Shown here piece by piece: positions 3,871 to 23,773 of a DNA stretch of 32,000 nt. The notes under the pieces were generated by a model. It saw nothing but the letters and a program-made list of their open reading frames with translations, searched no databases and was not told the DNA's origin. The DNA is from Candidatus Saccharimonadota bacterium. GTDB taxonomy: Bacteria; Patescibacteriota; Saccharimonadia; Saccharimonadales; UBA4665. The stretch covers positions 870,001 through 902,000 of the forward strand of contig OY970322.1 of NCBI GenBank assembly GCA_963716945.1, written 5' to 3'. Positions within the stretch are counted from its first letter, which is position 1; every line of letters starts with the position of its first letter. Position numbers and translations under genes: made by a program.

Positions 3871-4773
3871 ATGAATTACCATGACAACCCGGTTTTACAA
3901 CCATATTTCGATATTGGCACCGGCCGCGAGGGTATCCAGCACCTGCCGACACTCGAAATGCTTGACGAACGACTGGACGGCTTTTCGGAGGCCTCAGCCT
4001 GTCTGGCCCATGGCTCTATCCTGTCGGAAATCGCCGATATTTATACTAAGCCGCGTTTCTTCGACCCCGGCAAAGCTGACGAAGCTCTGGCCAAGTCCGA
4101 CGCCATGTATGACGCGGCCACGGCTAACAAGCGGCTGGTGCCGGTGGTCGGCCGCGAAGTTATCTTTAATTCAATGCGGCGCGAGCTGGTTGCCGGGCAG
4201 ATGCGAGCCATGCTGCGTCCGGCTCTCAGCGAGCTGACCGGTTTGGCGCTCGACATGTCCTCCAGGGATTATTTGGATGATAGGCACAAAGCCGGCTTCA
4301 TGAGCGAAATTCTGGCGCTGGGCGTACCGCTCTGGTTGACGCTTGAACGGCCCGAGCTTTTGGAAGACGGCGAACAAGCTATGATCGGCTGGCCCAGCTA
4401 CATGCGCCAAGACAAGGCGCGTGAAATTCACTTGGTGGCCGGCCGTAGCTCGGTTGCGCTGCCCAAGTTGGACTTCGATATGCGCCTGTCGACTTACGGC
4501 CAGGACTGGGCGGAACTGGAGGCCAAGCGCAAGGAAATCCAGATCAAATCACGCAAATCACCCGAAACCTACGACCCGAGCGTCATCGTTGCCTTTATGT
4601 GGAAGATCGGCCATATCCGCAAACCCGGCGACGCCGTTTCGATGGCCGAACACCTGGGCAATCTGCCCCGCGAGCTGCCCGACTTAGAGGAGTTAAAGCG
4701 AGTCAGAAAATTAGCCGGCGGCTTCCTCGAGCACGTCGAAGCCGAAGCGGCCGAGCTGGCCCTGGCCGCCTAG
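3871..4773 (+). CDS. hypothetical protein (about 300 aa, soluble)
   Basis: This is a long ORF with host-like GC. The ORF track starts at TTG 3868, and the ATG at 3871 is the adjacent codon. No motif recognised with confidence. Confidence 0.6.
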   Translation: MNYHDNPVLQPYFDIGTGREGIQHLPTLEMLDERLDGFSEASACLAHGSILSEIADIYTKPRFFDPGKADEALAKSDAMYDAATANKRLVPVVGREVIFNSMRRELVAGQMRAMLRPALSELTGLALDMSSRDYLDDRHKAGFMSEILALGVPLWLTLERPELLEDGEQAMIGWPSYMRQDKAREIHLVAGRSSVALPKLDFDMRLSTYGQDWAELEAKRKEIQIKSRKSPETYDPSVIVAFMWKIGHIRKPGDAVSMAEHLGNLPRELPDLEELKRVRKLAGGFLEHVEAEAAELALAA

Positions 4774-9253: not shown

Positions 9254-10381
9254 TCAAGAAACCGGTTGGCTTTTGACCTGTTCCCACGGCAGATCGGCTT
9301 TGCCGAAGTGGCCGTAGGCCGAGGTTTGGCTGTATATCGGGCGGCTCAAGTCAAGGGTATCGCAAATGCCCTTGACCGACGTGTCGATCAGTTTGTCCTT
9401 GAAAGCGTGCAGTTCTTCTTCACTGACGGTGGCGGTTCCAAAGGTATCAATGGTCTGCATTAGCGGCCGGGGCTGGCCGATAACGTAAGCCAGGCCGACT
9501 TCGCATTTGGTCGCCAGGCCGGCAGCGACGATGTTTTTGGCGATGTAGCGGGCGGCGTAGGCACCGCTGCGGTCGACTTTGCTGGGATCTTTGCCGCTGA
9601 ATGCGCCGCCGCCGACGCGGGCATAGCCGCCGTAGGTGTCGACGACGATTTTGCGGCCGGTCAGGCCGGCGTCGCTCTCCGGGCCGGGAATGTGCCACAG
9701 GCCGGTGCCGTTAATCGTGATATTGCCGTCTGCCGGCAGCTCGAATTTGTAGTGTTCGAGGACCGGTTTGATGATGTGTTCAATGGCGTCGGCGCGGACC
9801 TGTTCGGCAGTAGTTTGCTCGTCATGGGCCAGGGCCAGCACCAGCTTAGCGATTTCGACCGGCTTGCCGTCTTCGTAGCGCACGGTTACCTGGGCTTTGC
9901 CGTCGGGGCGGAGCCAGGCCAGCTCTTTGGACTGGCGGGCCTCGTCGACGCGGCGGGCCAGTGCGTGGGCCATGGCGATCGGCAGCGGCATCAGTTCGGG
10001 CGTTTCCTGGCAGGCGTAGCCGAACATCATACCCTGGTCACCGGCACCGTCCTGGTCGACGCCCATGGCGATTTCCGGCGATTGCTGGTGGATGTCGTTG
10101 CTGAATTCGGATTCCGGGCCGAAACCCCAGTCGGGATTGTCATAACCGAGCTCCTTGACCTTGTCGCGGACGATTTTCTCGAAGTTGAGGTTGGCCTTGG
10201 TCTTGATCTCGCCGAACAGGGCGATTTTGTTGGCACCGGCGACGGTCTCAATACCGGTACGGCTGTGGGGATCCTGTGCAAGCGCGGCGTCAAGGATGGC
10301 GTCGCTGATGGCGTCACAAATTTTGTCCGGGTGGCCGGCACAAACTGATTCGCTGGTAAAGTACTGGATCACACTGGGCAT
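9254..10381 (-). CDS. metK: S-adenosylmethionine synthetase
   Basis: 375 aa. The N-terminal SESVCAGHPDKICDAISDAILDA and the GGGAFSGKD loop are hallmark MetK motifs. Confidence 0.96.
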   Translation of the reverse strand: MPSVIQYFTSESVCAGHPDKICDAISDAILDAALAQDPHSRTGIETVAGANKIALFGEIKTKANLNFEKIVRDKVKELGYDNPDWGFGPESEFSNDIHQQSPEIAMGVDQDGAGDQGMMFGYACQETPELMPLPIAMAHALARRVDEARQSKELAWLRPDGKAQVTVRYEDGKPVEIAKLVLALAHDEQTTAEQVRADAIEHIIKPVLEHYKFELPADGNITINGTGLWHIPGPESDAGLTGRKIVVDTYGGYARVGGGAFSGKDPSKVDRSGAYAARYIAKNIVAAGLATKCEVGLAYVIGQPRPLMQTIDTFGTATVSEEELHAFKDKLIDTSVKGICDTLDLSRPIYSQTSAYGHFGKADLPWEQVKSQPVS

Positions 10382-10524
10382 AAAAATATCCTTCCCCCGG
10401 CTGCCGGGAAAGGATATTCAACGCGTAATATCTTTCCCTGGTGCGGGACTAGATGGAGCACCAACACCTTTTGACAGGCAGGTTGCCGGCAGGTCGTCAA
10501 GCTAGATCTCTCGCTGCACTCTTT
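10382..10524 (-). promoter_or_regulatory. candidate SAM riboswitch (SAM-I clan, SAM-IV or SAM-I/IV-like) with an SD-sequestering expression platform
   Basis: The minus-strand leader of metK contains GAGUGCAGCG, GCCGGCAACC (rc of 10481..10490) and AAGGUGUUGGUGCUCC (rc of 10455..10470). It is followed by three mutually exclusive pairing segments at 10427..10438, 10406..10418 and 10385..10398, and the last one contains the SD. Confidence 0.55.
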
Positions 10525-10570
10525 ATACTTATGAATTGTTAATGCACATATTGTAACATGGCCTGATTTG

Positions 10571-10688
10571 GCCGAAAGCCATAAAGTTTTCCAACCGTAG
10601 GGGTTGCAAGTGCAGTCCTGGCCGAATCTGCGTGGGCAGATTCGCCAAGACAAACGCCTGGAGGGCGGAAAACTTTATGGCTTTCGGC
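10571..10688. repeat. 118-nt structured element closed by perfect 22-bp inverted repeats
   Basis: 10571..10592 (GCCGAAAGCCATAAAGTTTTCC) is the exact reverse complement of 10667..10688. Nested inside are a 9-bp hairpin (10623..10631 / 10636..10644, loop GTGG) and a 5-bp hairpin (10592..10596 / 10601..10605). Confidence 0.8.
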
Positions 10689-10700
10689 TCCGGTGGCCGG

Positions 10701-11726
10701 CTAGTAAGGGCGGTCCTTTTCGAAATCTTCGGACCACTTGCCTTCGGCGGCCAGCGAGTTGGCTTTGCCGCGGTGGAGGTAGGCGGCGAGGGCTTTGTCC
10801 TGCTCGCCGGCAGCCCACAGTTTGAGGACCGGGTTCTGGATGGCGCGGCTGTAGGAGAAGGTCAATGTCCACGGCAGATCGCCGAGCTTGTTCATGGCGT
10901 CCAGGTGGGCGGTGGCTTCTTCGTCGCCTTGGCCGCCGGACAGGAAAACGATGCCGCCGATGTTGGCCGGTACGTGTTCTTTGAGGCACTTAACGGTTTG
11001 CTCGGCGACGGTCCGGACGTCGGCCCGGTCGGGCGCGTCTTTGCCGGAAATGACCATGCTGGCCTTCAGGATCACGCCTTCCATCAGGACATCCTGGTTC
11101 TTGAGGGCGGCGAAGAGGATGTCGAGCGTCTGGGCGGTAACTTCGTAACACCGTTCGATCGAGTGGTTACCGTCGAGTAGAACTTCCGGCTCGACTACCG
11201 GCACGATGCCGGCCTCTTGGGCCAGGCCGGCGTAAAGCGCCAAGCTGTGGGCGTTAGCCTTGTAGCAGGCCACGCTCGGCAGCGTGTCGCCGTCAATCGT
11301 AATCACCGCCCGCCATTTGGCGAAACCGGCGCCCATTGAGGCGTATTCGGCGAAACGCTCGCGCAGGCCGTCGAGCCCCTCGGTGAATTTTTCGCCGGGG
11401 TGCAGCGCCAAGTCCTTGGCACCCATGTCGACCTTAATGCCGGGAACGATGCCCTTCTGCTTGAGCACGTCGGCGAAAGGCGTGCCGGCGTCGTCCTTCT
11501 GCCTGATGGTTTCGTCATATAATATGACGCCGCTGAGGAAGTCCTCAACGCCGTCGGAGGTCAGTAATAATTGCCGGTATAGCCGGCGGTTTTCTTCGGT
11601 GTTCTCAACGCCGACGGCATCGAAACGCTTGGCCGCCGTGGCGCTGCTTTCGTCAGCCGCCAGCAGGCCTTTGCCCGGTGCCAGCATGGCCTTAACGGTT
11701 GCTTTGAGTTGGTCTTCGTATTTCAT
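10701..11726 (-). CDS. fba: fructose-bisphosphate aldolase, class I
   Basis: 341 aa. The GKGLLAADES motif and the Schiff-base lysine region EGVILKASMV match class I (Schiff-base) aldolases. SD AAGGAG lies 5 nt upstream, inside the 3' end of fbp. Confidence 0.92.
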   Translation of the reverse strand: MKYEDQLKATVKAMLAPGKGLLAADESSATAAKRFDAVGVENTEENRRLYRQLLLTSDGVEDFLSGVILYDETIRQKDDAGTPFADVLKQKGIVPGIKVDMGAKDLALHPGEKFTEGLDGLRERFAEYASMGAGFAKWRAVITIDGDTLPSVACYKANAHSLALYAGLAQEAGIVPVVEPEVLLDGNHSIERCYEVTAQTLDILFAALKNQDVLMEGVILKASMVISGKDAPDRADVRTVAEQTVKCLKEHVPANIGGIVFLSGGQGDEEATAHLDAMNKLGDLPWTLTFSYSRAIQNPVLKLWAAGEQDKALAAYLHRGKANSLAAEGKWSEDFEKDRPY

Positions 11727-12688
11727 GGCTTCTCCTTAACTATTTGTTTATTACCTATAGCAAGCGCTACGCGTTCATGCAGTTGTCGGGGAACAATATC
11801 AAGAATATCACTATTAGGCGATACGGCCGCGCCGCCGGCCTGTTCGGCCAGGAAGGCCATCGGTTTGGCTTCGTAATTAAGCCTCAGTTTGGGTTTGAAG
11901 TCTTGCCGGCCGGAAGTATCGACTGCCGGATAAATAAGAACCCCGCCTTTAATCATATTACGATGGAAGTCAGCCACCAGCGAACCTATCCAACGCTGTT
12001 TGCCGGCCTGCCGCCGGATTTTTGCCAGCAGCGCCTTGTCTTCGTCCGAAACGTAATCGGCATAAGCTTCGTTGAAGCTGTAATAAGGGCAGTCGGCGGG
12101 GATTTGAAGCCGTTCCTGGCTAAGCAGGAACTCGCCCAAATCGACGTCCAGCGTGAAAGCGTGCACGCCGTCGCCCCAGCTAAAAACCAGCATCGTGCTT
12201 GAACCGTACAAAATATAGCCGGCCAGCACCTGGTCGCGCCCGGGCTGGAAGAATTGCTTCTCGTCGCCGGCCTCGACACCGGCCAACTTCTTATGGACCG
12301 AGAAGATCGTGCCGATACCGACATTGACGTCGATGTTGCTGCTGCCGTCCAGCGGGTCGAAGGCTATGACGTAGTTGGCCTCCGGGTTATGGAGGTCGAC
12401 GACCGTTTCTTCTTCTTCGCTGGCCAGGGCCGCGAACAGCCCGGTTTGGCTCAAGTATTCCTTGCACAGGTCGTTGGTATAGATATCAAGCTTGGCCTGG
12501 GTCTCGTCCTGGACGTTGGTACTGCCGGCCGAACCGATAATATCGGTCAGCCCCGCGCGGTTGGTCCTGGCCGAAATCAACTTGCCGATGGTCGCGATGT
12601 CGGCCATCATCATGACGAGCTCATAGCGCTCCGGGTGGTCCTTGAGTTGTCCGAGAAGATATTGCTGAAGGGTTTTCGGCACGGTCAT
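11723..12688 (-). CDS. fbp: fructose-1,6-bisphosphatase, class I
   Basis: 321 aa. The metal-site motif DPLDGSSNID and the overall FBPase pattern are present. ATGA overlaps the fba start. Confidence 0.92.
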   Translation of the reverse strand: MTVPKTLQQYLLGQLKDHPERYELVMMMADIATIGKLISARTNRAGLTDIIGSAGSTNVQDETQAKLDIYTNDLCKEYLSQTGLFAALASEEEETVVDLHNPEANYVIAFDPLDGSSNIDVNVGIGTIFSVHKKLAGVEAGDEKQFFQPGRDQVLAGYILYGSSTMLVFSWGDGVHAFTLDVDLGEFLLSQERLQIPADCPYYSFNEAYADYVSDEDKALLAKIRRQAGKQRWIGSLVADFHRNMIKGGVLIYPAVDTSGRQDFKPKLRLNYEAKPMAFLAEQAGGAAVSPNSDILDIVPRQLHERVALAIGNKQIVKEKP

Positions 12689-14901: not shown

Positions 14902-15492
14902 ATGGCTTCAGTGTTTGGCGCGCTTATTTTACTGTTTATCGCTATCAGTACGGGCTGCTTGGTCTATCTGCACTTCCTGCCAACCGGACTCCATCCGTTG
15001 CGTAACGCCGTAAGCGAATACGGCGCGGGCCGGTTCCATTTCTGGTACCAGGCCATGTGCGTCAACCAGGCTATTGCCGCTTTTTTGGCGGCCGCGGCCC
15101 TCGCGACCCGGGTCACGCCGGCCCCTTTTGCGACGGACATGGCCCTGATTGTTTTGGGGCTGGCGCGTCTGGTAATCTCGCAAGCGCCGGTCGTTGTAGT
15201 CCACGGTAAACGTACAACCGCCAGCGGCATACACTTACTAATGGCCGGACTCATCTTTGGCTCAGCTGTTGTAGCTTCGACGTCTTTTGACAGAGCCATA
15301 GCCGGGCACGCCGATTGGGCCAGCGTACTTAGCGCTTTGCACTTATTCAAGCACGCGATAGCGTTCTTTGCGCTACTTACGTTGTTAGCGGTCGTCGTGC
15401 CGCGTGGTTTGCGTTATGTCGGCACGGTCGAACGGCTGCTTTATGCATCGATAATCGGCTGGTTCGTGACCGTCGGCATACATCTGCTTTGA
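14902..15492 (+). CDS. integral membrane protein, DUF998-like
   Basis: 196 aa with about 6 TM segments. The pattern LHFLPTGLHPLRNAVSEYGAG resembles DUF998. This is judged from memory only. Confidence 0.55.
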   Translation: MASVFGALILLFIAISTGCLVYLHFLPTGLHPLRNAVSEYGAGRFHFWYQAMCVNQAIAAFLAAAALATRVTPAPFATDMALIVLGLARLVISQAPVVVVHGKRTTASGIHLLMAGLIFGSAVVASTSFDRAIAGHADWASVLSALHLFKHAIAFFALLTLLAVVVPRGLRYVGTVERLLYASIIGWFVTVGIHLL

Positions 15493-15575
15493 CCAACGGT
15501 AAAATCACTTTATTATCACAAACTTCCAAAGGGGCGTATAATGCCACTACCAGCAAGCTTAACTTAGGAGAGCTT

Positions 15576-16079
15576 ATGCGGAAGTATTGGATTATCTTGA
15601 TAGCGTTAGTGGTTATTGTGGGCGGCGGTTGTGCCATCTGGTGGCTTGCCAGCGGCCAAAATACCAATAATAATTCTAATAGCACCTCAGCCTCGGTTGC
15701 CATAGAAACGTCGACCAAAAACCAAATCAAAGCCAACTGGGTCAAATTCTTCGCCGGCACGACCTCTGCCCAGGACAAAATCAACCTGCTGCAGAACGGC
15801 CAGCAGTTCGCTCAAGTCATTCAGGCTCAAGCACAGTCGGCGACGGCTAAGGCGACAACCGCGACGGTTTCCAATGTGAGCCTTAACGGCAACACGGCGA
15901 CTGTTATATACACCATTGATATCAACAAGCAGCCGGCGCTCAGTAACCAAAAGGGTCAAGCTGTCGATGTGAAGGGTGCCTGGAAGGTAGGTGACGCGGC
16001 CTTTTGCGGCTTACTTCAACTGTCCGGCAGCCTGCCGCCGAATTGCCCGGCTACCAGCAGCAACCCGTCGTCCCAATAG
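15576..16079 (+). CDS. membrane-anchored hypothetical protein
   Basis: The ATG at 15576 is preceded by SD AGGAG at 15566..15570. The ORF-track start at 15489 is a TTG overlapping the upstream stop. The N-terminal TM segment MRKYWIILIALVVIVGGG is followed by an N/S-rich linker and a small globular domain. Confidence 0.6.
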   Translation: MRKYWIILIALVVIVGGGCAIWWLASGQNTNNNSNSTSASVAIETSTKNQIKANWVKFFAGTTSAQDKINLLQNGQQFAQVIQAQAQSATAKATTATVSNVSLNGNTATVIYTIDINKQPALSNQKGQAVDVKGAWKVGDAAFCGLLQLSGSLPPNCPATSSNPSSQ

Positions 16080-20089: not shown

Positions 20090-21004
20090 CTATTTTCTAT
20101 CCAACGCGGTCAGGATGGCCACGACGGTCTTGTCTTTTAGCAAGTCCGGCGCAAGCTTATCCAAGGCTGCAACGCCGGCAGCCGAGGATAGCTCGATGTT
20201 CCAGCCGTGACGCGACAGTATTTCGGCTTTGGCTTTTTCCATCTCTTGGTTAGTGACGAATACCGACCAGCCGCCGCTGCGCGCCTCGACGTCTTCAACG
20301 TATTTGGTAGTCAGGTCGGTAACTATCGATAAAGCCTCCGACCCCGTCCGCTGATTGGCCCGGGCCAGTATGAACCGCGGGACTTTGGCAATCTTGCCGG
20401 CCTGCGCCAGGTCGATGAACTCACGCAAAGCGCCTTCGGCATGGTCGGCAAACGATACCGGCAAGCTGACGATATCGGGAGCATCGTGCAGGGCGCCTAC
20501 GATTTCCGTGCCGGTGAGCCGGTAGGCGTCAACCGCGGGCAGGTCTTGGCCCGCTTGCCGCTGCTTGTGAGTAATACCTAGCGGGAAATAGCCTTGTTCG
20601 ACGAACTTCTCATAGGCCCTCTGCTGCGCCGGTTCGTCGGCCTCGATTACGAAAGACGCGCCATTCTGCTTGTAGAGCTCGAGGTAGACCGGGCTTACGA
20701 CCACGTCCATACATACCAAGCACTCTATATTGGCTTTTTTGCAAGCGTAGGCCAGGGCCAGGCCTTGGTTGCCTTCGGACATGGCAACGACTCTTTTGGC
20801 TCCGTTCTTTTTAGCCAGCTCTACCGCCCCTTCTGCCCACTTATCCTTGTGAGACTTGGTCGGCCCGTACCACTCCGGCTTCAACAAAATATTGCTTTGG
20901 TAGCGGCTGGATAGGTAGTTTGACTCGACTAGCGTAGGTTTATTCATATGGATAGCATGACAAATGGCCGGCCTATTCTCAACTAGGTGGTTATTATCCT
21001 TCAT
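20090..21004 (-). CDS. PLP-dependent enzyme, fold type II (Trp-synthase-beta/threonine synthase/cysteine synthase superfamily)
   Basis: GPTKSHKDKWA aligns to the PLP-lysine motif (nPTGSfKDR), and SEGNQGLALAYA aligns to SsGNhgqAlA. Substrate specificity is unknown. An alternative start is at M20. Confidence 0.7.
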   Translation of the reverse strand: MKDNNHLVENRPAICHAIHMNKPTLVESNYLSSRYQSNILLKPEWYGPTKSHKDKWAEGAVELAKKNGAKRVVAMSEGNQGLALAYACKKANIECLVCMDVVVSPVYLELYKQNGASFVIEADEPAQQRAYEKFVEQGYFPLGITHKQRQAGQDLPAVDAYRLTGTEIVGALHDAPDIVSLPVSFADHAEGALREFIDLAQAGKIAKVPRFILARANQRTGSEALSIVTDLTTKYVEDVEARSGGWSVFVTNQEMEKAKAEILSRHGWNIELSSAAGVAALDKLAPDLLKDKTVVAILTALDRK

Positions 21005-21028: not shown

Positions 21029-22816
21029 CTACGAGGCGACCAGCTCGCGTTCCCGCGTGCGCGTGGCGGCTAATGAACCGTCGGTCGCGTCATAGGGGAA
21101 GAGTTCGTCGTCTGGCATTGACGATCGGTGGAGCTTATCGCTGACTTTGCGTATACCCCTCAGTGCCAACCGGCGCGCTTGGCTGGCGCTTACACCGAAT
21201 TCGGCACCGGTTTCCCCCCATGAGGGAAGGCCGGGTGTCAAGAAGTAACTTGTTATAATCTCCTTCTCCCGATTGCCGGCAGCCGGCAAGACCTCTTCCC
21301 AGGTTTTGGTCCCGAGAGCTTGAGCTCCGATTCGTCTCACGAGGGCCCACTCGTTAGTTTCAAGGTCTACTTCCCGGGCCGGGAACCGGTCTTCGTCATA
21401 AAAGACTTTTACCATGAGGGCCAGTTCCGGACGGGTGCGGGCACCGACTTTCTTCTTGAGCTGGTAAACTATTTCCCCCAGTCTTTCGACGGTGCAATCA
21501 AGCTCCAGATCGTCAATGATGTCCTGGTAGTTCCAGTGGAGCCGCTGTATGATTCTCACTTCCTGCGCGTGGAAGGCTTCGGTTATAGGCAGCTTGGGCT
21601 CGGCCAGGTCAAACTCCATGCCTTGTTCGTATAGCTCCAGAATAAGGGCGGTCCTGGTGTTATATTCCAGGCCGGCCTTTTGCATTACGGTGCCGACTAC
21701 GCTCGCCACGCCGCTTTCACTCAGATCAATGTCGGGCATGCGGGATATGTCCTTGTTGTGCATGTACAGCGCCCTTTTCATGATTTCGGACTGCAGGGGC
21801 GTGAGCTTCTGCAGCAAAGGCGTTTCCGGCGGATTCAGTTCTTCTTCGGTAGGCTCAAACTTGTGCATTTGAGCCAGCAGCGCCCGTTCGGCGCGGCTTC
21901 TGGCTTGGGTTTTGGACCGCAGTGAAGTCCCCAGCCTCAGCAATTTCCGTTTGGTAAAACCGAGCTCCTCGGCGATGGCGGCGTTAGGCATGTGCAGGCG
22001 GCTGGCCACCAAACGTTCGTCGACCGTGAAATGTTCCCGGCCCGGTATTTCCACTACATCGTAGTTCATACCCTTGCGCCAGGCTTTGACGGCTGCTTCT
22101 TCCCGGGTTTGAGCGCCGAGCTTTTGTTTTATCGAGGCTACGATCTCGTTTACCTTGTTAATACTGCCTATGCCCGTGGCCACACCGATAGTTTCGGCGT
22201 TCAGGTGTAGTAGGCTGGCGACTTTCAATTCCTCTTCATCAAGCCACCTGGCTTCCTGGTCTTCGATTCTGGCCTGCGTTTTTCTGACAGCCGCCGGGCT
22301 AGGCGCCATATAGGCGTTGTCGATGAATTGGTAGATGCCTTCCATCGGCTTCTCAGCTACCTCCACGAATGAGTCGCCGGCTTGTTGCGGCATGGCTACG
22401 CCAAAAGCCTCATGCATGCAGCGCGCAGCATAGTCGCTGAATTCTCCGTCCTGTTCCCTGTCGTAAGTTTTGGCGGCCTTTATCAGGCCGTGCCGTCCCC
22501 TGCTCAGCAAATCTTCCGGACCGAAAGGGCCGCGCTTAAAGGGGTACGCAACGGTTGCGATCAGTCCCCAATGACTGTCAACCAGCTCGCGCGTACTGTC
22601 TAAGCTGCCCTTCCTGAGACCCGCTATCAGCAGGCGTTGCGTGGCCGGATCGGGCAAACTGTCGGGAAAGCCCGCTTGTTTTTGCTCGATAATCAAGGCG
22701 TCTATCTGATCTTGGGGATCAAGATAGATAACCTCTTCGATATACCGGCGAGGGTCATTATTAAAGGTAAAATCCGGCCACTCGCGCGGCAGCCGGACCG
22801 CATCCGTTTCCATCAC
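21029..22816 (-). CDS. sigma-70-family-like protein with four additional LuxR/GerE-type HTH modules
   Basis: A sigma region 2 pattern spans aa ~60-140, and a region 4 pattern spans aa ~512-562. Four modules of about 60 aa (aa 191-473) each end in K-x-G-x-x-[TS]R-x-E/A-like helices. The first codon at 22816 is GTG, and the ATG at 22813 is the likely leaderless start. Confidence 0.7.
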   Translation of the reverse strand: MMETDAVRLPREWPDFTFNNDPRRYIEEVIYLDPQDQIDALIIEQKQAGFPDSLPDPATQRLLIAGLRKGSLDSTRELVDSHWGLIATVAYPFKRGPFGPEDLLSRGRHGLIKAAKTYDREQDGEFSDYAARCMHEAFGVAMPQQAGDSFVEVAEKPMEGIYQFIDNAYMAPSPAAVRKTQARIEDQEARWLDEEELKVASLLHLNAETIGVATGIGSINKVNEIVASIKQKLGAQTREEAAVKAWRKGMNYDVVEIPGREHFTVDERLVASRLHMPNAAIAEELGFTKRKLLRLGTSLRSKTQARSRAERALLAQMHKFEPTEEELNPPETPLLQKLTPLQSEIMKRALYMHNKDISRMPDIDLSESGVASVVGTVMQKAGLEYNTRTALILELYEQGMEFDLAEPKLPITEAFHAQEVRIIQRLHWNYQDIIDDLELDCTVERLGEIVYQLKKKVGARTRPELALMVKVFYDEDRFPAREVDLETNEWALVRRIGAQALGTKTWEEVLPAAGNREKEIITSYFLTPGLPSWGETGAEFGVSASQARRLALRGIRKVSDKLHRSSMPDDELFPYDATDGSLAATRTRERELVAS

Positions 22817-22819
22817 TAT

Positions 22820-22848
22820 ATAATTACATATTAACTCTTATAAGTCAA
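22820..22848 (-). promoter_or_regulatory. promoter TTGACT-17nt-(TGt)AATTAT for the sigma-like gene
   Basis: Minus strand reads TTGACT (22848..22843), a 17-nt spacer ending in TGT, then AATTAT (22825..22820). The ATG at 22813 lies 6 nt downstream. Confidence 0.45.
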
Positions 22849-22972: not shown

Positions 22973-23044
22973 ATGGAGAAGCTAGCCACGCGCTGCCATG
23001 AGACGGTCATGGAAAGACGCGATAACCGCGTCACCGTACATTAA
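22973..23044 (+). CDS. possible 23-aa upstream ORF (MEKLATRCHETVMERRDNRVTVH)
   Basis: A strong SD, GGAGGAGG, ends 3 nt before the ATG. The ORF stops 24 nt before the hsp20 start. It is too short to assess coding potential. Confidence 0.15.
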   Translation: MEKLATRCHETVMERRDNRVTVH

Positions 23045-23068: not shown

Positions 23069-23497
23069 ATGCAATTAGTAAGATACAACCCGCTTCGCGA
23101 TTTGCAAAAAATGGAACGCGATTTAGACAAGTTTTGGGATAGCGGCTGGGGCCTGGTACCGTCGATTGCGGATTCGACCACCATGGATCTCTATGAAGAA
23201 GACGGCAAGCTGGTAGCCGAAGTCAGCCTGCCCAACTTTAAGAAAGAAGAGGTCAAGGTGACCGCCGACGAGGGCGTGCTGGAGATTTCGGCCGAACACC
23301 AGGAGAAAGCAGAGGACAAGGACAAGCGGCGCTACTATTTCCGCGAGAGCAGCAACCGTTACTTGCGCCGGGTCAGTCTCCCCGAAGGCGCCAAAACTGA
23401 TAAGATCGAGGCCGAATTCAAGGATGGCGTGCTCAAGGTAAGTATGCCGGCGGCCAAACCGGCCAAAATTGAAGCTAAATCAGTCCCCATAAAGTAG
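23069..23497 (+). CDS. hsp20: small heat-shock protein, Hsp20/alpha-crystallin family
   Basis: 142 aa. The alpha-crystallin domain pattern is present (DLYEEDGKLVAEVSLPNFKKEEVKV...GVLEISAEH...FRESSNRYLRRVSLPEG...AEFKDGVLKVSMP). SD AGAGGAG. Confidence 0.93.
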   Translation: MQLVRYNPLRDLQKMERDLDKFWDSGWGLVPSIADSTTMDLYEEDGKLVAEVSLPNFKKEEVKVTADEGVLEISAEHQEKAEDKDKRRYYFRESSNRYLRRVSLPEGAKTDKIEAEFKDGVLKVSMPAAKPAKIEAKSVPIK

Positions 23498-23500
23498 GCT

Positions 23501-23773
23501 ATGATGACATACGCCAAACCGCTGCCACGCATTGATAACGTACTCTGGCTGAGAAAATTAGCCCGGCCCTTCCCGGCTACCGCCGGCAAGATATTGGGCA
23601 TAGCCAAAGCCTGGAACTTTAGTGCCGGCACGACTGACTTCCTTAAACTATTTCCCGAAGACGAGGTGTTCGACAGCGGCGATGATTTTTTGACCCGTTG
23701 CGACGAGTTAGAACTCTTGATCCGGGAGGAACGCCGGATGCCGGTCGAAAGCCTGCGCAGTCCGCAAGACTAG
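23501..23773 (+). CDS. small protein, DUF2795-like
   Basis: 90 aa. The start lies 3 nt after the hsp20 stop. The pattern FPATAGKILGIAKAWNFSAGTTDFLKLFPEDEVFDSGDDF resembles DUF2795. This is judged from memory only. Confidence 0.45.
   Translation: MMTYAKPLPRIDNVLWLRKLARPFPATAGKILGIAKAWNFSAGTTDFLKLFPEDEVFDSGDDFLTRCDELELLIREERRMPVESLRSPQD

Follow-up and report, generated by a model that had tools for sequence, protein, structure and literature searches.

A sigma-factor-like protein from a Candidatus Saccharimonadota bacterium with four predicted LuxR/GerE-type helix-turn-helix modules between regions 2 and 4

Sigma factors usually comprise two to four domains in a fixed layout, and additional promoter specificity normally comes from separate activators. 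In the group 1 and 2 factors (SigA, RpoS) and the group 3 factors (SigK, SigE, SigF, FliA), regions 2.1-2.4 and 4.1-4.2 follow each other in this order, while extracytoplasmic function (ECF, group 4) factors keep to a minimal sigma2-linker-sigma4 plan, to which some groups add a fused domain that modulates activity. Among DNA-binding proteins of other kinds, known members of the LuxR/GerE/NarL-FixJ family (Pfam: PF00196) have one four-helix helix-turn-helix (HTH) domain per chain and dimerise through its fourth helix, and in the AraC/XylS family, with MarA and Rob, there are two rigid HTH units per chain, a MarA monomer reading two adjacent major grooves beside the promoter. Here we describe a gene on the reverse strand of a 32,000-nucleotide stretch of a Candidatus Saccharimonadota genome (hereafter the window; positions 870,001 to 902,000 of contig OY970322.1, assembly GCA_963716945.1), whose product of 594 amino acids (aa) has sigma-70-type regions at its two ends and four LuxR/GerE-type HTH modules (M1 to M4) between them.

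Compared with the sigma factors of groups 1 to 3, which give its best matches, this protein has the same regions 2.1-2.4 and 4.1-4.2 in the same order, but it has no region 3, holds ~290 residues of four LuxR-type HTHs between the two halves of its linker, and scores under every curated cutoff. The ECF plan is shared by its module-less relatives (257-366 aa) and not by the protein itself, in which ~360 residues with four folded domains separate sigma2 from sigma4; in contrast to the fused domains of ECF factors, the extra domains lie inside the linker and not after region 4, they are HTHs of a DNA-binding type, and no anti-sigma gene is adjacent. Each module has the four-helix fold of the LuxR/GerE family and superposes on domains of the GerE type, but here four of them stand in one chain as two heterotypic pairs that are predicted to be rigid. 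To MarA and Rob the likeness is one of function only, the fold family being unrelated.

Our leading interpretation, which we hold at roughly even confidence, is that of an alternative sigma-70-family factor in whose sigma2-sigma4 linker LuxR pairs have been inserted, probably adding DNA contacts. A first-pass annotation, made from the letters of the window alone, had already read the open reading frame (ORF) as a sigma region 2, four LuxR/GerE-type modules in place of region 3 and a region 4, and had not recognised this layout as a described sigma architecture.

Sigma-type ends and a modular centre

A word-indexed search returned nine relatives, all full-length and 37-71% identical to the window protein. 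The alignment of these ten proteins (A1) conserves the whole layout at a mean column identity of 57%, and the persistence of the full architecture down to 37% identity argues that it is not a fusion artefact. Residues are numbered throughout with the GTG codon at 22816 as residue 1.

At the N-terminus, the Pfam model Sigma70_r2 matches residues 78-136 of the window protein (E 5e-4) and is found in seven of the ten family members (best E 3.7e-7), and the NCBIfam matches are to SigK (1e-10), TIGR02937, RpoD, SigB/F/G and SigE, none of them at cutoff. Against the PDB, the family profile reaches region 2 of SigA and RpoS at E 2e-9, and in the HMMER alignments to each top structure its positions ~73-142 follow regions 2.1-2.4 (reLvdsHlGlvAavaYPFK...eLlreGaralikAaktYd...FsDyAaaaiHeal against ...NLRLVVSIAKKY...DLIQEG.LGLIRAAEKFD...FSTYATWWIRQAI), with the signatures D-L-[LI]..G..GLI.A..(Y/F)D and FS.YA kept. 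SigK is the best NCBIfam match, in line with a local sequence, DLLSRGRHGLIKAAKTYD...YAARCMHE, that we take to resemble SigK closely. The sigma2 region is also among the best-conserved parts of A1. From these matches we assign the N-terminal domain to region 2 of the sigma-70 family, nearest to the SigK/SigE/SigF/RpoD-RpoS type and not to the ECF-specific models.

At the C-terminus, Sigma70_r4 matches residues 516-558 (E 8e-3), and a Pfam scan of the ten members finds Sigma70_r4 in nine (best 2.6e-8) and Sigma70_r4_2 in eight (best 5.5e-10). Profile positions ~494-555 align to regions 4.1-4.2 of SigA and RpoS, including the lead-in L..L...RE..VL..RYGL, and the N-terminal region 2 and the C-terminal region 4.1-4.2 are collinear with every top solved sigma factor. 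When the profile of this segment (R4) is compared with the PDB by itself, it matches mostly sigma region 4 (RpoS, SigB, RpoD, RpoH and the ECF factor SigE) and no LuxR-type domain, and the top Foldseek matches of the full-length AlphaFold model are all sigma factors from holoenzyme structures. The region 4 signal is weaker than that of region 2; taken together, these comparisons place the C-terminal HTH with sigma region 4 and not with the LuxR domains. Some RpoD alignments run on into M1 and M2, and a true region 4 in that place was considered; we rejected it, since the collinear domain alignments, the sigma-dominated matches of R4 and the module-less relatives described below all point to the C-terminal R4.

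The linker between these two regions is split. Its first half, LK, contains the invariant motifs P..AGDSF and PME.VYQF (invariant columns in A1: P143, A146, G147, D148, S149, Y162 and F164), is kept in the module-less relatives, and is modelled by AlphaFold as two helices and a short strand, not as a three-helix sigma3 domain. That LK might be a degenerate region 3 was rejected, as Pfam at E<=1 matches nothing in residues 136-200 of nine members and the model has no sigma3-like fold there; a region 3 is not detectable in this protein. The second half, P4, is conserved in A1, directly precedes region 4 in the module-less relatives and aligns with the lead-in to region 4.1 of SigA.

The residues between the two linker halves fall into four modules of ~65 aa each. 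When A1 was cut into segments and the module alignments were compared profile-to-profile with hhalign, M1 was related to M2 and to M3 at 97.4% (E 1e-11 in both cases) and to M4 at 98.2% (E 5e-14), M2 to M3 at 96.7% (E 4e-10) and to M4 at 98.8% (E 6e-17), and M3 to M4 at 96.1% (E 3e-9); any module compared with R4 gave E ~3e-3 or worse. Hidden Markov models (HMMs) of the modules also cross-match inside the window protein, that of M4 hitting the M1 region at E 4.6e-11. Columns are highly conserved in each module, and the signature K-h-G-h-x-x-R-x-E is kept in all four. Taken alone, the window protein has no Pfam match in residues 190-475, either within the whole chain or from any module singly, and sensitive self-BLAST finds no internal repeat in it; by itself it supports the annotated layout weakly, and the case for that layout is built on the family. 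GerE is found by Pfam in seven of the ten whole family members (best E 1.2e-14). By module, it is detected in two of ten homologues for M1 (best E 2.6e-9), in five for M2, in one for M3 and in two for M4, for which one homologue has Sigma70_r4. The PDB profile comparison relates M1 to DegU, LiaR, GerE and NarL (~1e-6), M2 to ComA, NarL and FixJ (2e-4), and M3 to GerE (3e-4) and also NarL; the M4 profile has no direct PDB sequence match.

In the full-length AlphaFold model (mean predicted local distance difference test, pLDDT, 84.5; predicted template modelling score, pTM, 0.45) each module consists of four helices. From a separate AF2 model of M1-M2 (residues 184-326; pLDDT 91.3, pTM 0.82; 88.6-91.3 over five models), single modules superpose in Foldseek on the DNA-binding domains of GerE, NarL, DegU, LiaR, VraR and DosR, with a target-normalised template modelling (TM) score of 0.73-0.84 and a root-mean-square deviation of 1.0-1.6 A over ~60 residues at 22-33% identity. 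On profile and fold evidence, the middle region is thus assigned to four mutually homologous HTH modules of the LuxR/GerE type.

These modules are of two alternating types. M1 and M3 (A-type) end in G-h-x-[YF]-D...P, and M2 and M4 (B-type) carry ARSR.ELAL and end in F-[ED]. The order is kept in the wider family: among 28 four-module proteins, the best-scoring module model is that of M1 at position 1 and that of M4 at position 4 in every case, that of M2 at position 2 in 27, and that of M3 or M1 at position 3 in 27, and 12 of 13 two-module proteins have an A-type followed by a B-type module. In the full-length model, pLDDT is 85-90 across the M1-M2 and M3-M4 junctions, and the only internal dip in the module array (to 70) is at the inter-pair linker FEPTEEELNPP, in which E321, P322 and E326 are invariant in A1. 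The models therefore suggest an arrangement in alternating rigid A-B pairs, two in this protein. No single PDB chain spans both modules of a pair in Foldseek, the best query-normalised TM score being 0.42.

Regions 2 and 4, the four modules in residues 190-475 and the missing region 3 all stand as the first-pass annotation had drawn them: region 2 through the Pfam matches in the family and the PDB profile match, region 4 through Sigma70_r4 in nine of ten homologues and the collinear alignment with SigA and RpoS, the modules through the hhalign comparison and the fold match, and the lack of a region 3 between regions 2 and 4 through both Pfam and the model. Of the checks that it had proposed, structure prediction gave a four-helix HTH fold for all four modules, and two others came out divided: Pfam sees the sigma regions on the window protein under cutoff and GerE in homologues only, and the internal repeats, missed by self-BLAST, emerge from the family-profile comparison (96-99%).

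An architecture series and the readings it allows

A profile search of 1.84 billion cluster representatives returned 74 at E<=1e-30 and 165 at E<=1e-10, by which measure the family, one of uncultured lineages, is real but rare. Among the GTDB species genomes scanned there is no true relative, only a partial match of 24% identity in a Cytophagales metagenome-assembled genome, and a scan of JGI metagenomes returned one locus. An origin in a mobile element was rejected, there being no relatives on the viral contigs, phage genomes or plasmids searched, and each locus holds a single family member. The protein passes the cutoff of no Pfam or NCBIfam family, automatic names in the family are either 'specialized sigma subunit' or 'CsgD family regulator', and no description of the architecture was found in the literature searched, whose coverage lay mostly outside subscription journals. 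This agrees with the earlier view that the layout is not a recognised one, and disposes of the caveat attached to it, that the family might be common and already annotated. All parts come from known families; it is the combined layout that appears to be new.

Domain HMMs from A1, run over the top-scoring relatives of the profile search, revealed a series of architectures: 1) sigma2, four modules and R4 in 25 representatives and the window copy, 2) sigma2, two modules and R4 in 11 representatives, 3) sigma2 and R4 without modules in P0053 and P0069, by HMM, and in P0088 and P0097, by eye, all four being confirmed as module-less by a generic module HMM, 4) an unrelated N-terminus and a coiled coil followed by four modules and R4 in 6-8 representatives, and 5) a duplicated R4 in four representatives (P0011, P0044, P0060 and P0068). 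Many shorter entries, such as P0050 and P0043, stop within a module and are probably fragments. The four module-less proteins retain the N-terminal DPID motif, AYPFK, the LK motif and the P4 helix directly before region 4, and because they keep all of these flanking motifs, we read the modules as having been inserted, pair by pair, into the linker between sigma2 and sigma4 in a compact sigma-like protein.

The same data bear on whether the architecture is real at all. Mis-assembly, a gene fusion, a pseudogene or a chance likeness of helical low-complexity sequence to HTH profiles would account for the silence of Pfam and self-BLAST on the four modules of the window protein, yet we consider any of these extremely improbable: the full architecture recurs in 25+ clusters that are <50% identical to one another and stem from independent samples and assemblers, the module columns are highly conserved, with inter-module E values down to 6e-17, the models are confident (pLDDT 84.5 and 91.3), and the promoter and start codon are conserved. 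The conservation data effectively refute an artefact.

Several observations weigh against our sigma-factor interpretation. On the window protein, Sigma70_r2 reaches 20.2 bits against a cutoff of 24, Sigma70_r4 16.2 against 24.1 and TIGR02937 38.8 against 42.9, and all equivalog sigma models fall far under theirs. The PDB matches of R4 are weak when taken alone (E 0.012-0.8, with i-Evalues of 0.1-13 in the collinear alignment). Two residue pairs of SigA, Q-E in region 2.2 and two tryptophans in region 2.3, are missing from the family; both are dispensable in group 3 factors such as SigK and are also absent from SigK-type factors. M3 and M4 are net acidic (-2 each, with 0 for M1 and +6 for M2) and have the weakest LuxR signatures, and not every module need bind DNA. 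Since the linker normally passes through the RNA exit channel, four folded domains within it are awkward to place, and a scan of the window with a 14-nt promoter core identified no target promoters or regulon. The chief argument comes from the series itself: in P0032, P0036, P0038, P0040, P0044 and P0060 the cassette of four modules and R4 follows an unrelated N-terminal domain and a coiled coil, and in P0028 (712 aa), which also has a long KR/E-rich coiled coil, it is preceded by a strong, separate match to an ECF-type region 4 (Sigma70_r4_2, E 1.8e-15, residues 161-210), as though a small sigma factor had been joined to the front of the cassette. The cassette can, in other words, work without this sigma2.

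These forms invite the reading that the protein is a multi-HTH DNA-binding regulator or a nucleoid-organising protein and not an initiation factor, its five HTHs acting as an autonomous array and its sigma2-like head being interchangeable and used for oligomerisation, for partner binding or for competing with sigma factors for core RNA polymerase. At least eight cluster representatives in which the cassette has an unrelated head and a coiled coil would fit this, as would the sigma-specific scores, all under cutoff on the window protein, the automatic annotation of one relative as a CsgD-family regulator, and the existence of tandem arrays that are not sigma factors (14 GerE domains in P0081, seven in P0087, six Sigma70_r4 in P0092), which resemble the present protein in their many GerE/sigma4 HTHs per chain but have no sigma2 and different N-termini. 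We nevertheless find this reading rather doubtful: sigma2 ranks with the most conserved parts of the family and can be aligned with regions 2.1-2.3 of sigma factors of known structure, the matches of R4 are to sigma region 4 and not to LuxR domains, and the module-less relatives are plain sigma2-linker-sigma4 proteins, hard to explain unless the ancestral function was that of a sigma factor.

A further alternative retains a true sigma factor and assigns its modules a regulatory role, as a built-in anti-sigma or docking platform that keeps sigma2 and sigma4 apart or masked until released by a signal or a partner, for instance a response regulator of the NarL type that pairs with the LuxR-type helices. 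Fused regulatory extensions are found in some ECF sigma factors, and LuxR-type domains are known to dimerise through their fourth helix. That no anti-sigma gene or other conserved neighbour occurs in ten loci, that M3 and M4 are acidic with degenerate recognition-helix signatures, and that the gene has a housekeeping-type promoter, because of which its control would likely be post-transcriptional, are all consistent with such a platform. We regard it as unlikely all the same, given that the K-h-G-h-x-x-R-x-E signature and the full four-helix fold are kept in all four modules, that M2 is strongly basic, that the modelled pairs are rigid, as expected of a unit spanning adjacent DNA grooves, and that no partner was identified.

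Giant proteins of 1,000-7,700 aa, in which HTHs of this kind are repeated in long tandem arrays, were also collected (P0081, P0084, P0085, P0087, P0090-P0093, P0096, P0100, P0126 and P0143). The 14 GerE stretches of P0081 lie in a chain of 2,854 aa and the six Sigma70_r4 stretches of P0092 in one of 998 aa, while in P0087 (1,273 aa) the seven GerE domains follow a WXG100-like N-terminus, a head that suggests secretion.

Gene start, promoter and genomic setting

The 595-codon ORF at 21029..22816 on the reverse strand is present as first annotated, with the same translation and with nucleotide and residue coordinates that are arithmetically consistent; the features discussed here are collected in Table 1. 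The public gene call (protein from the NCBI/ENA/Logan assembly) is 594 aa long and 100% identical. Of the gene start proposed in the first pass, a leaderless GTG at 22816, the leaderless part stands and the codon does not: in the upstream DNA alignment this GTG is GTA in two orthologues, and because the promoter footprint is conserved and the GTG codon is not, we place the start at the ATG at 22813. The public calls for P0003, P0004, P0006 and probably P0008 seem to begin too far downstream, and a conserved upstream ATG (MEME.../MEAAR...) lies directly 3' of the conserved promoter in L005 (~3980-4001), L006 (~3980-4001), L009 (~3985-4001) and L012 (4001).

Table 1. Positions of the features of the sigma-like gene and its product in the window
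Feature	Positions	Strand	Residues	Remarks
-35-like hexamer TTGACT	22843..22848	(-)		Consensus scan; conserved in 4 close orthologues, flanks diverged
Conserved 23-nt promoter/spacer block TTGACTTATAAGAGTTAATATGT	22826..22848	(-)		Contains the palindrome CTTATAAG; putative operator
Extended -10, TGT then AATTAT	22820..22828	(-)		17-nt spacer after -35
Coding sequence	21029..22813	(-)		594 aa and stop, from the conserved ATG at 22813
Family-specific N-terminal motif FNNDP..Y...V.YLDP.DPID.L	22643..22774	(-)	15-58	Near-invariant columns in A1
Sigma region 2 (2.1-2.4)	22391..22642	(-)	59-142	
Conserved linker LK	22259..22390	(-)	143-186	First half of the split sigma2-sigma4 linker
Module 1	22061..22258	(-)	187-252	A-type LuxR/GerE four-helix HTH
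Module 2	21851..22045	(-)	258-322	B-type LuxR/GerE HTH
Acidic inter-pair linker	21821..21850	(-)	323-332	Part of FEPTEEELNPP; predicted flexible hinge
Module 3	21611..21820	(-)	333-402	A-type HTH
Module 4	21395..21589	(-)	410-474	B-type HTH
P4 segment	21302..21385	(-)	478-505	Second half of the split linker, into region 4.1; acidic stretch and helix N.W.LA..LG.KTL
Sigma region 4 (4.1-4.2 HTH)	21119..21301	(-)	506-566	
C-terminal tail	21032..21118	(-)	567-595	Poorly conserved, predicted disordered

As a bare match, a sigma-70-type promoter at this place is no better than chance (1 found, 1.3 expected), and the evidence for it comes from conservation. The window, L003, L005 and L006 have an upstream block in common, consisting of ATTGACTTA, a spacer, TGTAATTAT, ATAGT(G/A) and ATG, between diverged flanks, and in nine of ten loci a similar promoter is found 3-10 nt before the likely start codon, with -35-related hexamers (TTGACT, TTGACA, TTGCTA or TCGCTA) likewise in nine of ten. 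The -10 hexamer ends 6 nt before the ATG, which is ~7 nt past it; a transcript starting ~7 nt past the -10 would begin at the ATG itself and therefore be leaderless, and it is this conserved footprint that speaks for the leaderless gene of the first pass. The 23-nt pattern TTGACTTATAAGAGNTAATATGT is exact in the window and in L009, whose proteins are only 41-42% identical, and the 14-nt promoter core has its sole mismatch-free copy in the window at this gene, the two 3-mismatch matches elsewhere in the window being within chance. The 23-nt block is constrained beyond the need of two hexamers and may be an operator. In a search of the intergenic region for direct and inverted repeats only short two-copy matches were found.

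At the N-terminus of the product, the family-specific motif is kept in most relatives, module-less forms included, and may resemble the signature of sigma region 1.2. At the other end, the tail is present in the four closest relatives only, and pLDDT falls below 50 at residues 570-595.

The window is ordinary chromosome, with a GC content of 55.6% (56.3% in the sigma-like gene) and a single tRNA by Rfam, and encodes TypA, a CshA-like helicase, RarA, an amidohydrolase, FBPase, a class I aldolase, MetK, an ABC transporter and a P-type ATPase; by NCBIfam, the neighbouring genes have housekeeping functions. The spacer of 252 bp that had been given for the divergent hsp20 is correct, and becomes 255 bp when counted from the ATG. 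The 24-nt gap to the following pyridoxal phosphate (PLP)-enzyme gene holds for the ORF (ATG at 21004) and not for the public call, which starts 81 nt past the stop codon. Neither neighbour is conserved in orthologous loci, and across ten loci no conserved partner or anti-sigma gene lies beside the sigma-like gene. A subclade of P0005, P0006, P0008 and P0010 has its housekeeping synteny in common, with Pur_DNA_glyco, 3-dmu-9_3-mt and Carb_kinase upstream in four of four loci and DUF308 downstream in three of four, with no plausible anti-sigma gene among them.

Some further observations concern the surroundings of the gene. In one subclade, an ORF of 220-242 aa is conserved a few genes upstream (L007 906-1568, L009 2365-3036, L012 1365-2093 and L004 2883-3587), with 33-50% identity between loci; it has two LuxR-like HTH segments with a faint GerE/HTH_23 signal, does not match the module HMMs, and is absent from the window-clade loci examined. 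FBPase, class I fructose-bisphosphate aldolase, S-adenosylmethionine synthetase and DUF998 are found near the sigma-like gene both in the window (9254-12688 and 14902-16079) and in the genome of P0002 (L003 9510-13782), at different distances and in different orientations. Each of these two copies is carried on a single contig (~1.05-1.10 Mb), possibly the whole small genome of one of two related organisms. The hsp20 gene, unlike the sigma-like gene, has a clear Shine-Dalgarno sequence (AAAGAGGAG), and 37-73 bp upstream of its ATG at 23069 two adjacent palindromes were noted by eye, CCATGA-CCGTC-TCATGG (22996-23012) and GACGCG-GTTAT-CGCGTC (23016-23032), which may be a heat-shock operator and appear to match neither CIRCE nor HAIR. 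Directly 3' of hsp20, a 90-aa ORF at 23501-23773(+), without a match in NCBIfam or Pfam, appears to be co-transcribed with it.

Proposed action and significance

We infer from its sequence that the protein binds RNA polymerase and DNA. If it is the alternative sigma factor that we favour, its ancestor would have been a two-domain sigma factor (region 2, possibly with a region 1.2, then linker and region 4) that gained LuxR/GerE HTHs in units of one rigid A-B pair. Sigma2 would dock on the clamp of RNA polymerase and read the -10 element, the C-terminal region 4 would dock on the beta-flap and read the -35 element, and, as happens in other sigma factors, one of the linker halves, LK or P4, would pass through the RNA exit channel. 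An A-B pair could play the part of a covalent LuxR/NarL dimer, or of the HTH tandem in MarA, and contact about two turns of DNA adjoining the core promoter, which would let the holoenzyme recognise a long composite promoter with no need of a separate activator. The gene itself is apparently transcribed by the housekeeping holoenzyme, and because no anti-sigma gene lies alongside, the activity of its product probably depends on how abundant it is, on autoregulation at the promoter/spacer block or on a partner that is not linked to the gene.

A more specific proposal, which we put forward tentatively and think less probable than its contrary, is that sigma factor and activator are united in one chain, that the composite promoter comprises up to six elements, that the number of pairs (0, 1 or 2) is tuned for promoter length or selectivity, and that the 23-nt block is autoregulatory.

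The layout raises the question of whether promoter recognition and activation can merge in one chain, and, with four domains of a DNA-binding type in the linker, how these are accommodated on RNA polymerase; the natural series of proteins with 0, 2 and 4 modules is a ready comparison set for experiments on both. The rigid LuxR pair would be a new, covalent way to build a LuxR 'dimer'. Should DNA reading by the modules be borne out, such proteins would provide synthetic biology with orthogonal sigma factors of high specificity, and would show how lineages poor in regulators might compress their regulatory circuits.

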